Under the pieces are notes generated by a model. That model saw nothing but the letters and a program-made list of their open reading frames with translations. It had not been told where the DNA came from and searched no databases. Below are positions 41,976 to 47,152 of a stretch of DNA of 64,000 nt, one piece after another. This DNA comes from Dehalococcoidia bacterium (GTDB lineage Bacteria; Chloroflexota; Dehalococcoidia; Bin125): the NCBI GenBank assembly GCA_963663895.2, contig CAXXRD010000002.1, positions 544,001 to 608,000 of the forward strand, in the 5' to 3' direction. A program made the position numbers and the translations under genes. The first letter of the stretch is position 1, and every line of letters starts with the position of its first letter.

Positions 41976-43930
41976 ATGACTCAACACTCCAAGCGCTCCA
42001 GAACCGAAGTCGCCGGTCAACTGCTAAGAGTTGCGCGACTCGATACGCTTCGTGGGTTAGTCCGAACGAACCGAGAATGGGTGAAGATCGTCCCGGGCTT
42101 TCGACCGCAGACGCTTACACGTGACATCCTCATCACGAGAACGAATCACCTTGCGAGAGAGCCACAGCTGCTAGAGCAGCTTGCCGGCTCAATCCTCAAT
42201 GACTTAGGTCTCCAAGGCGGCTCTCTGGCGGATCGTCTCGTGGAAGCCCTCTCTCGACCAGACCTCTCATCCGATGCTCGAGAAGTATTCACCACTCTGC
42301 ACGAGCATTCCCTTTGGGACTTGCCGCTAGGAAAAGAGAAGGCCGCGCAATTCGCTCCAAGCCACAGCGGCACGCAAGTCCACGAGCCCAAGTCCAAAAT
42401 CAAGGATGCTGAGAAGGACACTAAAGCCGATCGTGAGTCCAAATCAGAGAGTGCTGTAGCACCCGATGAAAGCCAATCTTTGGACTCGGATTATCCGCCG
42501 CCGGAGAGCACCTTTTCGAGTGTCTTCAAATGGGAGCCTTCGAACGATCACATCTCCCCTCTTCAAGACGCTGTCACTGAGTTCGAGCGATCGCTGAAGG
42601 AATTCACGAAGTGGGCGCTTAAACAAGCGTACGGCGATAGATGGCTTCGGCAAGGCTGTGGTGCCATCGGCAAAGAATGGCGTCGAAGAGCGTCTGAAAG
42701 CGGACGTAGTGTTGAGCCAGAGGGTCTAACCAGTGAAGCATACCTCGGAGAGCTACGGAACATCATTCGCAAGACCGAAAATCGCCAAGCGTTCGATCAC
42801 TTCTTCGAAAATATCGACGAGTTCTCTACCGACATGGGTAGTGTGATCAAACTCAGAAATACAGTGATGCATCCAGGAGATACAGATGTCGAAGTACTCC
42901 AGCAAACTGCGGGGCTCGCCGCGATGCAACGGGTCGCCAAGTGCTATAGCGAAGGTCTCGGAAAATTCATCGGCCAAGTGTTTGACGACTTCACTAACGG
43001 GACAGAGGTGGAGCAGGAACCAGCGGAGGAGACCGTCCGTGATCGCGTGCTCACGAATCTCACAGATTTCAGCGCGACTCAGCTAGTTGGAAGAGACGAT
43101 GAGCTTAGTAAGCTGCGCGAAAGCTTCTGGGAAAACCGATTCAAACGTTCAATCTCGATCGTAGGGCCTGGTGGGGTTGGGAAGACAGCTCTCCTTGATG
43201 CATTCCTGGAGAGTCTTCTTCGGATCCCGGTGCAGGAAGAAGAACCACTCAATCCGAGCATACTCGTCTACCTGACGGCAAAGGAAGAGTACCTTGATGG
43301 CATGGACCGCACACAGCCTCGAGTCCACTTCAACACCCTGCGAACTGTTCTTGAAACTGTTGTTCAGCTGCTCGAAGGCGACACCGATGAGTCAATTGAG
43401 ACCGATGCGCTCACTACCCAAGTCTATGAGCTGTGCGAAGGGGAACCCATTCTCTTCGCTCTCGACAACCTCGAGACGCTCGATGATGATGAATTCTCCG
43501 CCCTTGGCTCGTTTCTTTCGAACTTGCCCGCTAGCAACAAGGCAGTCGTTACGACGCGTGATGACCGGATCATCGGGGACAGGCTGACCCTTAGCCGTCT
43601 CCCCGTCTCAGCTGGCGTTGAGCTACTCCGGACAAGACTTCGTGGACATGACTACGAACTCGAAGAGCATGCTTTATCTTCAGCGAAGGCCCTCGTAGAT
43701 GCTGCAGACGGGATCCCGCTAGCAATCGTCCTGAGTGCTAACAACATCGCGAACGGCTTATCGATCGATGAAGCAGTAGAGAGATTACAAGGGACTCAAG
43801 GCATCGAATTTCAGGAGTTCTCATTTGGCTCGTCATGGAACACCCTTACCGATACTGAACGAGCGCTCCTCTATTTCCTCGCAGTTTCAAAGAAGCCTCG
43901 ACGAAGGCGTGAACTCGAACCATTTTGCAA
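41976..43930 (+). pseudogene. 5' part of an NLR-like STAND ATPase gene (Swt1-like HEPN + NB-ARC), interrupted by an IS
   Basis: YGDRWL..YLGELRNII..LRNTVMH (RxxxxH); GPGGVGKT Walker A, ALDNLE Walker B, VVTTR, GIPLAI; lower GC. Confidence 0.8.
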
Positions 43931-43950
43931 GGTAACGATAAGTTAGGGGC

Positions 43951-43979
43951 TTGACAATGGGATCGGGGATTGGGATAAT
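43951..43979 (+). promoter_or_regulatory. Inward promoter of the IS
   Basis: TTGACA-17 bp-GATAAT with TGn extension; the -35 overlaps the left IR. Confidence 0.65.
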
Positions 43980-43999
43980 GGCTGCGAAGGGTAGCAGTC

Positions 44000-44894: not shown

Positions 44895-46378
44895 ATCGCC
44901 TCTACTACGGCGACTGCCTGGAGGTGATGCTGGACCAGATGAAGCAGGCCAGCGTCGACCTGATCTACCTCGATCCGCCCTTCAACTCCAACCGCCAATA
45001 CAACGCGATCTACAAAGACGAGACGGGCCGTCCGCTGCCCGACCAGATCGACGCCTTCTGCGATATGTGGACGCTGGATCGGGAGACGGACGAGCAGATA
45101 CGGAAAATGCCGATCCTCCTGGCCGACGCGGGCGTGGACAGTCACGTCGCCGAGTTCTGGAAGGTCTGGGCCAACGCGCTCCGGCGCACCAATCCCTCCC
45201 TCCTCGCCTACCTCTCGTACATGGTGCAGCGGCTCGCCTTCATGAAGGGGATTCTGAAGCCGACCGGGAGCCTCTACCTCCACTGCGACCCCACGGCCAG
45301 CCACTACATCAAAGTGATGATGGACGGGATTTTCGGACACAAGAACTTTCGGAGCGAGATCGTGTGGCAGCGCCACAGAGGATTCAAGCGGCGCACGGCA
45401 AAGCAGTTTCCCCAGAAGAACGACACGATCCTGTTCTACGCACAGTCGGCTGATAGCGTCCGGTTCCATGCGCAGTATCGTCCGCACAAGCCTGACTACA
45501 TCCGGCGCTTCAAAAAGGATGAGGCTGGGCGCTTGTACCGAGATGATGTGAACCCGACTCGCGGCGGGCGCCGCGTCATTTATCTCGATGAAACGAAGGG
45601 GGATATCGTCGATTCCGTCTGGACGGACATTCCCCCGGTGAATCCTCGCGCCAAGGAACGCATGGGATATGCGACACAAAAGCCCCTTGCGCTTCTAGAG
45701 CGCATCATTAAGGCATCCTCCGACCCTGGGGATGTGGTCTTCGATCCATTCTGCGGCTGCGCGACCACATTAGAGGCCGCGCACAGACTTGACCGACAGT
45801 GGATCGGGATCGACATCGCGATCCACGCGATCAAGCGGGTTGCCCGCGTCCGGTTGGAAGAGCGGCTAGGGTTGGTCGAGGGGCAGGACTTCACGATCGA
45901 AGGCGTCCCGCGCGATCTCGAAGGCGCACGTGACCTGCATCAGCGCGACCCCTACCACTTCCAGAAGTGGGCCGTGGAGCAAGTGGACGGGTTCGTGACC
46001 ACGCGCCGATCCGCCGACGGCGGGATTGACGGGCGGCTCTACTTTGCCATGCCGGACGAGCGCGATCTGCAAAGCATGGCGATCGAGGTCAAGGGCGGCA
46101 GGCACGTTAACATCAACGTCGTGCGCGAGTTACGCGGCGTCTTGGAGCGCGACGAAGCGAAGCTGGCGGGGTTGATCGTGCTAGAGCCGCTGAGTCAGCG
46201 CAAGGCGCAGAACTTCGGGCGCGAGATGGGGGAGGCGGGATTTCTCGAAGTGGAGGGCCGCGTGTTTCCACGGCTCCAACTCCTCACTGTCACCGATATT
46301 CTCGACGGCAAGCGGTTCGATACGCCGTGGGCCGTCGGGCGGCATGAGCCGGAACCCCACTTGCCCGGTATCTCCTAA
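44891..46378 (+). CDS. DNA methyltransferase (DPPF, N6/N4 family) fused to an Mrr-like endonuclease domain
   Basis: LYYGDCL, YLDPPFNS, GYATQKP, DPFCGCATT; C-terminal ADGGIDG..IEVKGG. Confidence 0.85.
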   Translation: MNRLYYGDCLEVMLDQMKQASVDLIYLDPPFNSNRQYNAIYKDETGRPLPDQIDAFCDMWTLDRETDEQIRKMPILLADAGVDSHVAEFWKVWANALRRTNPSLLAYLSYMVQRLAFMKGILKPTGSLYLHCDPTASHYIKVMMDGIFGHKNFRSEIVWQRHRGFKRRTAKQFPQKNDTILFYAQSADSVRFHAQYRPHKPDYIRRFKKDEAGRLYRDDVNPTRGGRRVIYLDETKGDIVDSVWTDIPPVNPRAKERMGYATQKPLALLERIIKASSDPGDVVFDPFCGCATTLEAAHRLDRQWIGIDIAIHAIKRVARVRLEERLGLVEGQDFTIEGVPRDLEGARDLHQRDPYHFQKWAVEQVDGFVTTRRSADGGIDGRLYFAMPDERDLQSMAIEVKGGRHVNINVVRELRGVLERDEAKLAGLIVLEPLSQRKAQNFGREMGEAGFLEVEGRVFPRLQLLTVTDILDGKRFDTPWAVGRHEPEPHLPGIS

Positions 46379-46407
46379 GCCCCTAACTTATCGTTACCAT
46401 TTTGCAA

Positions 46408-47152
46408 GGATGATGATGATCTCTCTCGAGCGCTGACTCGACTCCGTACACAGGTTTTCTTCGTGAGGCCAGGGCCAGGTGTTCGTGCGCCGACCTTTAC
46501 TATCGCCATTCGAGTCCTACGCGATTACGTGCGCCAAAGAGGTCCCGAGACTCTCCCCGCAAACCTCGTCACACAGATCCAAGCGAAAGCGCAAATTGAG
46601 CCATTCGAAGCAGAATCTCCAAGCGTGGCTAGGTCTCTAGAGCAAACGCTCCGAAGTTGCGATGACACCGTCAAGCAGCACGGTTATCGAGCAGGTGTCG
46701 ATGCCCTTAACAAAGCGGTGGAGAATTGGGGAAGGGACCGACGTATCCTCGCCCACCGCGGGTACCTAAAGTACCGCCTCAGAGATAATGTTGGTGCCAA
46801 GAAAGATTTACGGGCCGCGATCGATGCGGGACACGAGAACGCTGACGTGTATCTGCACCTAGGTCTCGTCCATTACTACTCGCATGAAGACCTGTTTGCT
46901 GAGAACTGTGCACGTCGGGCGTTGAGTATCCGGCCAGGGTTCGAGAAGGCTGAGCGCCTCCTCGGAGATTGCTTGCTCACGAAGGCTAAGCGGGAACTCT
47001 TCACTCTTACGGAGCCTCAGCGTAAACAGATGCTGCAGGAAGCTGAAGAACACCTCAGAAACGCTCTGTACCGAGACGAAGCCACACAGGGACAGCGAAA
47101 GCACAACGAGGCTATCCACGCTCGCCTGGCGAATCTGAAGGATTCACTATGA
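46408..47152 (+). pseudogene. 3' part (wHTH/TPR) of the interrupted STAND gene
   Basis: Removing the IS and one TSD restores ...ELEPFCKDDDDLSRALTRL..., in frame with TPR-like AHRGYLKY / VYLHLGLVHY / AERLLGDCL. Confidence 0.82.

Follow-up and report, generated by a model that had tools for sequence, protein, structure and literature searches.

Which gene has been split by an insertion sequence (IS) beside a tRNA-His gene of this Dehalococcoidia bacterium, and what would its product have done while it was whole? The window analysed here comprises 64,000 nucleotides of contig CAXXRD010000002.1, and the coordinates of the relevant features are collected in Table 1. By analogy with characterised systems, we favour, with a probability of roughly 0.6, an acquired single-gene sensor of the STAND/NLR type of ~899 aa, which would act like the Avs proteins through abortive infection and which was inactivated by the IS.

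Table 1. Features of the split gene, of the inserted element and of their surroundings (positions in the window)
Feature	Position	Strand	Details
tRNA-His (GTG)	41723..41799	-	Divergent neighbour of the gene; ARAGORN; Rfam tRNA 57.3 bits
5.4-kb block (gene and IS)	41877..47258		Missing from the same site in 2/2 same-genus genomes
11-nt direct repeat GAACGCGGCAG	41895..41905 and 47164-47174		One copy on either side of the acquired block
5' part of the broken gene	41976..43930	+	Codons 1-651 plus 2 nt
N-terminal helical domain	41976..42311	+	Residues 1-112; conserved W35, G41-F42-R43, L69
Low-complexity linker	42312..42530	+	~Residues 113-185; predicted disordered; poor alignment columns
Swt1/Abi-class HEPN domain	42531..43010	+	~Residues 186-345; R294 = 42855-42857, H299 = 42870-42872
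NB-ARC-type STAND NTPase	43071..43775	+	Walker A 43164-43187, LDNLE 43461-43475, TTR 43551-43559, GxP 43710-43718
Flanking 9-bp direct repeat ATTTTGCAA	43922..43930 (left), 46399..46407 (right)		Abuts both IS tips
IS1595-family transporter IS	43931..46398	+	2468 bp; single copy in this genome
Left terminal inverted repeat	43931..43952		22 nt, perfect
IS1595 transposase	44000..44894	+	Two frames: 44000-44494 (Zn-ribbon, start of DDE), 44394-44894 (rest of DDE)
Passenger gene	44891..46378	+	495 aa; N6/N4 DNA methyltransferase fused to an Mrr-type restriction-endonuclease-like domain
Right terminal inverted repeat	46377..46398		22 nt, perfect
3' part of the broken gene	46408..47152	+	Final nt of codon 652, followed by 247 codons and stop; rest of the post-NTPase helical region and TPR-like tail (TPR matches ~46700-46966)

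The split gene and the inserted element

Excision of nucleotides 43931-46407 by script joins the 5' part (1955 nt) to the 3' part (745 nt) in an open frame of 2700 nt, comprising 899 codons and a stop, with 0 internal stops and AAG as codon 652 at the junction. Exactly such a frame had been claimed in the preliminary description, and the claim is borne out by the join itself as well as by the alignment with the closest homologue of the joined protein, P0006 (883 aa, 64% identical), which is gapless at the break. Residues 1-634 of P0006 align with the 5' part and residues 636-883 with the 3' part, each at 64% identity, while residue 635 is the counterpart of the split codon. Read in frame from 46409, the 3' piece encodes 247 residues and a stop with 0 internal stops; its other two frames, counted from 46408, contain 15 and 7 stops. 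The protein has homologues over its full reconstructed length: one search gave 17 of them, with 848-962 aa, and the profile search gave 20 cluster representatives of full length.

A chimeric assembly that only mimics an insertion is highly improbable. The assembly consists of 5 contigs at 91% completeness and the IS is single-copy, which would be compatible with such an artefact, but the perfect inverted repeats and the target repeat flanking them speak against it. Furthermore, contigs from two public runs of one study, possibly the source data, cover 43400-44984 and 45802-46900, including both junctions, with 0 differences.

The inserted element corresponds to the transporter IS of the IS1595 family, which carry passenger genes (Siguier, Gagnevin and Chandler 2009, cited after PMC3129680). 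Like these, it combines a Zn-ribbon and DDE transposase (PF12760, E 1.3e-9; PF12762, E 2e-29; NCBIfam NF033547, 84.6 and 99.4 bits vs a cut-off of 75) with short terminal inverted repeats, a target repeat in the 8-9-bp range and, following the transposase, a single cargo gene. The exact match between the flanking repeats extends to 14 nt, as the flanks by chance resemble the tips of the inverted repeats. Three further genomes of the class contain relatives of the element with the same order of transposase and methyltransferase, and one of these relatives, L023, has an 8-bp target duplication. The relatives encode their transposase in a single ORF (292-313 aa, stop to stop), whereas the copy in the window, unlike typical transporter IS, changes frame within a G15 run (44450-44464), its two pieces aligning to residues 1-159 and to residues 156-291, respectively, in an intact relative. 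Given this frameshift and the lack of a second copy in the genome, the IS is probably stuck in place. The insertion had also been described as looking recent, a view based on the intact state of both gene halves. The term can be understood only in a relative sense, the cargo-carrying element having a frameshifted transposase of its own.

The break at codon 652 probably lies within the winged-helix region, after the NTPase and the helical domain with the GxP motif and before the TPR tail. Unjoined, the 5' frame runs on into the IS as an ORF of 656 aa (41976..43946), with homology ending after nt 43930. This product had been proposed to keep HEPN and ATPase and to lose the sensor; the loss of the sensor stands, but with a break that probably interrupts the winged-helix portion of the STAND module, more than the sensor would be gone. 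Since the remaining 656-aa product is without a sensor, the system is most likely inactive in this genome. Sensor-deleted NLRs can be autoactive, and a split system might still work if the 656-aa product behaved in this way or if transcription out of the IS yielded a C-terminal fragment to complement it. Both gene pieces being stop-free and an ORF of 229 aa with a GTG start (46463-47152) covering most of the 3' piece would agree with this. We nevertheless consider a functional split system improbable: the break falls within a continuous conserved region, no natural two-gene form occurred among the homologues examined, 0 of 3 listed sequencing runs are recorded as RNA, and sensor-deleted SeAvs7 is a non-binding control in PMC13581612.

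Domains of the reconstructed protein

The preliminary description had read the protein as an unrecognised N-terminal domain of ~120 aa, a Swt1-like HEPN domain with an intact RNTVMH motif, an NB-ARC ATPase and a TPR-like sensor region. These assignments hold up, the NB-ARC-type NTPase by motif invariance and by Pfam and PDB profile matches, and the HEPN domain, as a probable assignment, by its invariant motif and its best fold match.

In the HEPN domain, the motif reads R294-N-T-V-M-H299 (Rx4H), and both R294 and H299 are invariant in 18/18 aligned sequences. The top fold match of residues 193-344 was the HEPN domain of yeast Swt1 with Z 7.5 (rmsd 3.3, 120 aligned), a value below 8 and in the range that, according to the tool's note, helical models often reach by chance; it was followed by AbiF (Z 7.0) and, further down, by AbiA (Z 5.5) and Cas13 (Z 5.2 and 5.0). 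Foldseek returned nothing at E <= 0.001, and no Pfam HEPN family matched the window protein at E <= 0.1. HEPN_Swt1 (PF18731) matched four of the 18 family members (best E 5.7e-5), with bit scores of 20.4-24.7 for the homologues listed, which is under the cut-off of 27.5, and the PADLOC candidate-defence HEPN model PDC-M34B matched the window protein and 4/4 homologues tested. The yeast Swt1 domain, the best fold match, is called probably inactive in PMC3710099. This would be in line with a catalytically dead HEPN whose role is to bind RNA or to sense, a role that has been proposed for Swt1 of eukaryotes, in a protein acting without RNA cleavage. We give this reading little credence in view of the invariant Rx4H residues and of the entry in Table 1 of the same source, in which the bacterial Swt1-like STAND/TPR fusions are 'mostly active'.

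The NTPase motifs are equally conserved, with Walker A (GxxGxGKT, G397-T404), Walker B as LDNLE (496-500), T526/R528 and G579/P581 invariant in all 18 aligned sequences; we take TTR to be a sensor-1/RNBS-B-like motif and GxP to be the GLPL-like motif of NB-ARC domains. The window protein scored 48.3 bits with AAA_16 (cut-off 32.6) and 23.9 bits with Pfam NB-ARC (cut-off 23.5), and among the 18 family members AAA_16 was found in 18, NB-ARC in 17, TPR_2 in 12 and TPR_19 in 8. When compared with the PDB, the family profile matched the NB-ARC domains of the plant NLRs Sr35/CNL9, Roq1 and NRC1 (E 1e-5 to 2e-3) and consensus TPR proteins (E 1.7e-16). NTP hydrolysis may be weak, because Walker B reads D-N instead of two acidic residues. 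The TPR part is short, with roughly 2-3 repeats, and the window's own C-terminal piece gave weak TPR matches (TPR_2, E 0.0048; MamA, E 1.4e-4).

The linker (pLDDT <50 at residues 122-179) separates the HEPN domain from the N-terminal domain, which is family-specific, with a weak resemblance of its model to the Death/PYD fold. Could signalling depend chiefly on this domain, as a homotypic adaptor of the Death-fold or effector-associated-domain (EAD) kind that nucleates higher-order assemblies or talks to stand-alone proteins of its own kind, with HEPN as only one part of the output? Modelled alone, it reached a confident pLDDT of 88.9 and a pTM of 0.82, and among 48,161 chains the pyrin domain of NLRP10 matched its fold best (Z 5.7, rmsd 3.9, 90 aligned). 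Domains of the PYD, CARD, DED or bacterial death-like kinds fill about 20 of the top 50 rows, with many PYD, CARD and DED rows at Z 3-4.5. However, only a single chain reached Z >= 5, SAP-type and other small helical domains scored nearly as high, Foldseek with the model gave no match (E above 1), and Pfam, EAD families included, matched none of three N-terminal domains even at E <= 10. An Atlas feature search with the homologue P0007 pointed to EAD7 and EAD1 clusters at 0.75-0.76, values that lie below the tool's chance level.

An adaptor role would also fit the occurrence of stand-alone forms, which consist of the N-terminal domain and a low-complexity tail only and are found as complete ORFs inside contigs of two genomes; 30 of the 59 matches to the domain profile are 82-188 aa long. 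Against it, this one architecture is the only fusion in which the domain was found, leaving aside two PPR proteins that are probably spurious, and it occurs exactly once per genome in the five genomes checked, with fused and stand-alone copies never together. We regard an adaptor role as unlikely. PYD-only or CARD-only proteins modulate inflammasomes, and a still more speculative picture would be a bacterial NLR with a Death/PYD-like assembly module in front of the HEPN RNase, whose stand-alone forms in other Chloroflexota correspond to such regulators. The whole would be a prokaryotic, inflammasome-style, filament-nucleating RNase system, and the window would in addition record how one defence-type gene was knocked out by a transposon bringing in another, the methylase-nuclease gene. 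We consider this picture slightly less probable again. The weak Death/PYD resemblance of the N-terminal domain and its stand-alone forms are the sole new leads at this locus.

Genomic site and distribution

The low GC content and the position beside tRNA-His, both of which had been pointed out before, were confirmed: the gene pieces have 53.5% and 55.3% GC and the IS 61.9%, compared to 67.6-70.3% in the flanks, and 176 nt lie between the tRNA and the start codon. A classical island at the 3' end of a tRNA was considered and rejected, as the gene is on the 5' side of tRNA-His and there is no integrase. At the empty sites of the two same-genus genomes, the flanks are 37 and 33 nt apart. For the 11-nt repeat around the block, we estimated a chance expectation of ~0.006 for two search windows.

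The gene was not found in any of the 24 same-family genomes searched, and the family is rare, with 3 occurrences in a sample of 400 other genomes of the phylum. Together with the low GC and the block missing in both same-genus genomes, this clearly identifies the gene as accessory and horizontally acquired. It also stands alone as a one-gene unit, being the sole gene of the acquired insert, and the L030 homologue is surrounded by metal-transport, Fur, Lgt and MscS genes, with no defence-island context in the window or around the L030 homologue. Where named, the family members carry Chloroflexi or Chloroflexia MAG labels.

Proposed function and relation to known systems

In analogy to Avs and other antiviral STAND proteins, the C-terminal TPR region would bind a phage-derived ligand, whereupon the NTPase would oligomerise in a nucleotide-dependent manner and bring the HEPN domains together. 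The paired Rx4H motifs would then form active RNase sites, and cleavage of RNA would arrest the infected cell, i.e. lead to abortive infection. The parts run from the N-terminal helical domain and the disordered linker through the Swt1/Abi-class HEPN RNase and the NB-ARC-type NTPase to the short TPR tail, and we infer the antiphage function from the likeness to such systems.

A STAND-regulated RNase with the same biochemistry might instead be triggered by another conflict or stress, such as plasmid or mobile-element exclusion or kin-directed cell death. HEPN-STAND fusions are treated generally as 'conflict systems' in PMC3710099 and PMC8195603, neither the window nor L030 offers defence-island neighbours, and the named members belong to Chloroflexi or Chloroflexia MAGs, kin-directed death having been proposed for multicellular-type bacteria. 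On the other hand, the characterised effector-STAND-TPR proteins described in the available portion of PMC13581612 all sense phage proteins, and a patchy occurrence, low GC and insertion as a single gene are traits that suit mobile defence cargo. We consider a non-phage trigger doubtful, though it is the least improbable of the alternatives.

Returning to the antiphage reading, close parallels are the Avs or antiviral STAND NTPases (Avs1-5, and Avs7, 8 and 10-21 in PMC13581612), which share the order of effector, STAND NTPase and TPR-type sensor and are likewise single genes, sporadic and horizontally transferred. Unlike these, the present protein has a HEPN RNase as its effector behind an additional 112-aa domain, and its few TPR repeats contrast with the long sensors of characterised Avs proteins, as described in part in that source. 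The Avs/NLR models of PADLOC-DB v2 (2023) did not match the window parts (E <= 0.1) or four full-length homologues (E <= 0.01), a set that covers families defined up to 2023.

In architecture, the protein also resembles the HEPN-STAND-TPR fusions catalogued in 2013 by Anantharaman et al. (PMC3710099), with Npun_F6454, MED222_16016 and Desac_1927 in Table 1 as examples of a Swt1-like HEPN combined with STAND ATPase and TPR. Compared by description, they agree in HEPN clade (on the basis of fold and of Pfam matches below threshold), domain order and conserved Rx4H, whereas the present family has an additional N-terminal domain with a linker and is without an S1 domain. A distant match, P0023, carries PF18731, TPR and AAA_16 (E 3.5e-20). 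The mentions of HEPN-STAND fusions found in our literature searches are computational only. With the NB-ARC NLRs of plants and animals (Sr35/CNL9, Roq1, NRC1; Apaf-1 class), the protein shares the Walker A, TTR and GxP motifs, but it is bacterial, has a TPR sensor and not LRR or WD40, an RNase effector and D-N in Walker B.

Taken as an annotation, the locus is well supported, of a known type and as such not surprising. Should the joined gene protect against phage, it would add an RNase-armed member of the NB-ARC type to the antiviral STAND repertoire, from a little-studied phylum and with an unusually short sensor and an extra N-terminal module, which could bear on the origin of Death-like adaptor domains. 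The locus is also a clean natural case of defence-gene turnover, in which the gain of a single gene, with the empty site kept in sister genomes, was followed by its inactivation through a cargo-carrying IS that brought in a restriction-modification-like gene.

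Reconstruction and domain order of the broken gene

The HEPN-STAND-TPR gene starts with an ORF of 656 aa (41976-43946), followed by a block of differing composition and a further open stretch that finishes at 47152. Joining 41976-43930 to 46408-47152 by coordinates with a script yielded 2700 nt, open throughout the 899 codons up to the terminal stop; the insert falls within codon 652 (AAG). In a homology search, the 651-aa 5' product matched 28 proteins, 17 of which had 848-962 aa, a query coverage of 93-100% and an identity of 30-64%. The top match, P0006 (883 aa), is 64% identical to the 5' product over its residues 1-634 and likewise 64% identical to the 247-aa 3' product over its residues 636-883; the 3' product is also covered by the homologue P0007 (36% identity). 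Given this homology on both sides of the insert, the split as read from the sequence is genuine and exact to the codon. This confirms the preliminary description of an IS-split gene with one open 2700-nt frame, and the lack of full-length homologues that it named as counter-evidence was not observed.

The domain order (Table) was derived from an alignment of the window protein with the 17 full-length homologues and from two AlphaFold models. Among these 18 members, Pfam recognized AAA_16 in 18, NB-ARC in 17, TPR_2 in 12, TPR_19 in eight, HEPN_Swt1 in four (best E 5.7e-5) and HEPN_SAV2148 in two, with HEPN_Swt1 bit scores below the gathering score in the homologues with scores listed. Compared with solved structures, the family profile matched consensus TPR proteins (E 1.7e-16) and the NB-ARC regions of the plant NLRs Sr35/CNL9 (1.2e-5), Roq1 (2e-4) and NRC1 (1.6e-3). 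From the canonical NB-ARC order we infer that residues 601 to about 700 may form a winged-helix domain. A word-based, weak search with the C-terminal piece against longer proteins found only P0006, and the sensor was not found in other architectures.

Positions of domains and frames (residues of the reconstructed protein; nucleotides of the window or of the named locus)
Feature	Position	Strand	Remarks
N-domain	residues 1-112		family-specific; compact, helical; pLDDT 88.9 modelled alone
Linker	residues about 113-185		low-complexity, predicted disordered
HEPN helical domain (predicted)	residues 186-345		R294-x4-H299, invariant in 18/18 sequences
P-loop NTPase	residues 366-600		Walker A, LDNLE, TTR and GxP all invariant
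Conserved helical region	residues 601 to about 700		contains the break at residue 652
C-terminal tail			TPR-like
Transposase frame 1	44000-44494		Zn-ribbon_IS1595 and start of DDE
Transposase frame 2	44394-44894		remainder of DDE_Tnp_IS1595
Stand-alone N-domain ORF	L092:1438-2007	-	full-length STAND gene not found in genome
Stand-alone N-domain ORF	L091:1213-1950	+	full-length STAND gene not found in genome

When residues 193-344 were compared with 48,161 PDB representatives, the best match was the C-terminal HEPN domain of yeast Swt1 (rmsd 3.3, 120 of 136 residues aligned) with a Z of 7.5, a value that is no proof of fold for helical proteins; AbiF (Z 7.0), AbiA (Z 5.5) and two Cas13 structures (Z 5.2 and 5.0) came next. 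The Foldseek check proposed earlier returned nothing from the PDB at E <= 0.001 for models of residues 1-365 and 1-120. A predicted complex of two copies of residues 185-346 scored 0.01, which weighs neither for nor against a HEPN dimer. The PADLOC model PDC-M34B matched the window protein and all four homologues tested. Since the fold matches, the invariant Rx4H motif, the sub-threshold Pfam matches and PDC-M34B agree, we accept residues 186-345 as a predicted HEPN domain. With its motifs invariant in all 18 members and the Pfam and Swt1 matches, the reading of the protein as HEPN, NB-ARC and TPR is supported.

The N-terminal domain and its stand-alone forms

An alignment of 11 N-domains contains the invariant residues W35, G41, F42, R43 and L69. 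Three N-domains compared with Pfam gave no match, even at E <= 10, and Foldseek found nothing significant in the PDB for the model of residues 1-120. Modelled alone, the N-domain best matched the pyrin domain of NLRP10 (Z 5.7, rmsd 3.9, 90 residues aligned), and pyrin, CARD, DED or bacterial death-like domains account for about 20 of its top 50 structural rows; only one chain attains Z 5, and SAP-type domains score much alike. An Atlas search with residues 1-118 of P0007 gave scores that were all below 0.8, those of the EAD1/EAD7 clusters (0.75-0.76) lying under the chance level. An 'adaptor' reading of the N-domain is a minority hypothesis.

A profile of the 11 sequences, searched against 1.84 billion cluster representatives, produced 59 hits: 20 full-length, seven middle-length (249-653 aa), 30 short (82-188 aa; the sequences of six were inspected) and two PPR proteins. 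Three middle-length proteins (P0034, P0062, P0078) carry Pfam HEPN_Swt1 and/or AAA_16, three others (P0039, P0053, P0066) are without Pfam match and by eye consist of the N-domain and the start of the HEPN domain, and P0080 had no Pfam match. The two PPR-repeat hits, with 6-9 short stretches each, were set aside as probably spurious. P0076 (1212 aa) combines TIR_2 with PPR repeats, an architecture in itself unusual, and its nine short stretches probably match the profile because of the repeats. No case of the N-domain joined to another effector was found among the 59 hits. In two genomes of the phylum, complete contig-internal ORFs comprise the N-domain and a low-complexity tail only (Table), so the N-domain also exists alone. 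It occurs once per genome in all five genomes checked (fused in three, alone in two). The N-domain and its stand-alone relatives are the sole unexplored element of the system.

The IS1595-family insert and the state of the gene

Perfect 22-nt terminal inverted repeats bound the insert (43931-46398), and ATTTTGCAA adjoins both tips; the flanking repeat reaches 14 nt only because the adjoining bases mimic the tips. An IS1595-type transposase (NCBIfam NF033547, 84.6 and 99.4 bits; cut-off 75) is encoded in two overlapping frames, and its stop is overlapped by a passenger gene (495 aa) whose product joins an N6/N4 DNA methyltransferase (E 6.5e-43) to a domain like that of Mrr-type endonucleases (E 1.7e-5) and is matched best in PADLOC by Type II methyltransferase models. 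Within the class, 28 of the 401 genomes searched matched the insert at E <= 1e-20 (its own genome counted), mostly via the methyltransferase only. Transposase and methyltransferase occur in like order and with approximately 70% nucleotide identity in three genomes (G297, G328, G300), where the transposase is one ORF of 292-313 aa stop to stop; the element at locus L023 has its own perfect 22-nt inverted repeats and an 8-bp target duplication. The methyltransferase-Mrr fusion (window 44891-46378) and the transposase thus form a conserved travelling unit in at least three other genomes of the class (loci L021, L022 and L023), and methyltransferase-only matches were seen in about two dozen further genomes of the class. 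Inserts of this type, the 'transporter IS' elements within the IS1595 family, are already known (Siguier et al. 2009, as cited in PMC3129680).

On an intact relative, the two transposase pieces cover residues 1-159 and 156-291, and the frame changes within a run of 15 G (44450-44464). This G tract may be prone to slippage and act as a switch, may be a fixed mutation or may stem from a homopolymer error, though it recurs in contigs of two runs. Contigs from two public runs of a single study, possibly the data behind the assembly itself, agree without any difference with the transposase/G-run segment and the two IS junctions. The IS is single-copy in the genome (2.37 Mb, five contigs, 91% complete), a genome-wide search of which found no second copy of the broken gene or the IS.

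What is left of the protein, a 656-aa product, retains the N-domain, the HEPN domain and the NTPase; the helical region after the NTPase is lost in part and the TPR tail entirely, which bears out the predicted truncation with loss of the sensor. Given the stop-free pieces, the perfect inverted repeats and the perfect target repeat, the insertion is, judged by sequence, young relative to gene decay. 'Recent', as the preliminary description had it, is nevertheless relative, as the transposase frameshift shows that some change followed the element's last move, unless that move depended on mobilisation in trans. The proposed search for an empty site was negative: no 43930-46408 joint was seen in contigs of three runs from one study, which drop rare variants, so that a minority uninterrupted allele could go unseen. 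Many apparent 'joints' and the high depth at 44921-45388 come from methyltransferase genes of other organisms.

Acquisition and proposed function

Two genomes of the same genus match the window up to 41876 or 41891 on the left and from 47259 or 47266 on the right, with 37 and 33 nt between the flanks. Given how close the flanks lie in these congeners, 41877-47258 is an insertion holding only the broken gene and the IS. The gene was not found in any of the 24 same-family genomes searched; it was found in one of 16 further families within the class and in three of 400 other genomes sampled across the phylum. Only one of 59 loci recovered from a species-representative collection contains a full-length member, which stands alone amid metal-uptake, Fur, Lgt and MscS genes in a Chloroflexia MAG. 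The GC content (gene 53-55%, IS 62%, flanks 68-70%) suggests two separate foreign origins of gene and IS.

A classical tRNA island was considered and rejected, as the locus lacks an integrase, the gene lies 5' of tRNA-His, and congener homology stops 78-93 nt from the tRNA. The acquired block is bracketed by an exact 11-nt direct repeat, GAACGCGGCAG (41895-41905 and 47164-47174). A further short match, GCTGCTGCCA (41948-41957 and 47272-47281), resembles the 3' terminus of the downstream gene. In the congeners, the empty sites contain neither of these repeats. Located 3' of tRNA-His, the first approximately 110 nt (41600-41710) match two more nearby places in each same-genus genome (loci L017/L018; 84-82% and 74% identity), pointing to a short repeat there, either dispersed or in tandem. 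Directly downstream of the broken gene, an ORF of 784 aa (47267-49621, minus strand) that is rich in G/N/V repeat motifs and has an N-terminal hydrophobic segment is kept in both congeners (77-84% nucleotide identity).

In its anatomy, the broken gene fits the effector-STAND-TPR layout of antiviral STAND proteins, which oligomerise on binding a phage protein and so activate their effector (PMC13581612). A computational catalogue of 2013 lists HEPN-STAND-TPR proteins under a Swt1-like HEPN architecture and calls them 'mostly active' (PMC3710099, Table 1), and STAND modules with HEPN effectors are mentioned again in PMC8195603. Based on this likeness, we propose that ligand binding would trigger NTP-dependent oligomerisation, which would activate the HEPN RNase and thereby abort the infection. 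With the models of 2023, the PADLOC check yielded no Avs or NLR match for the window protein or the four full-length homologues tested, and the data do not support assigning the gene to a named Avs family. No experimental work on the family was found in the main texts of the open-access literature.

The broken gene represents a rare, new variant within an already known kind of system, and the transposon that most likely inactivated it is likewise of a known kind.
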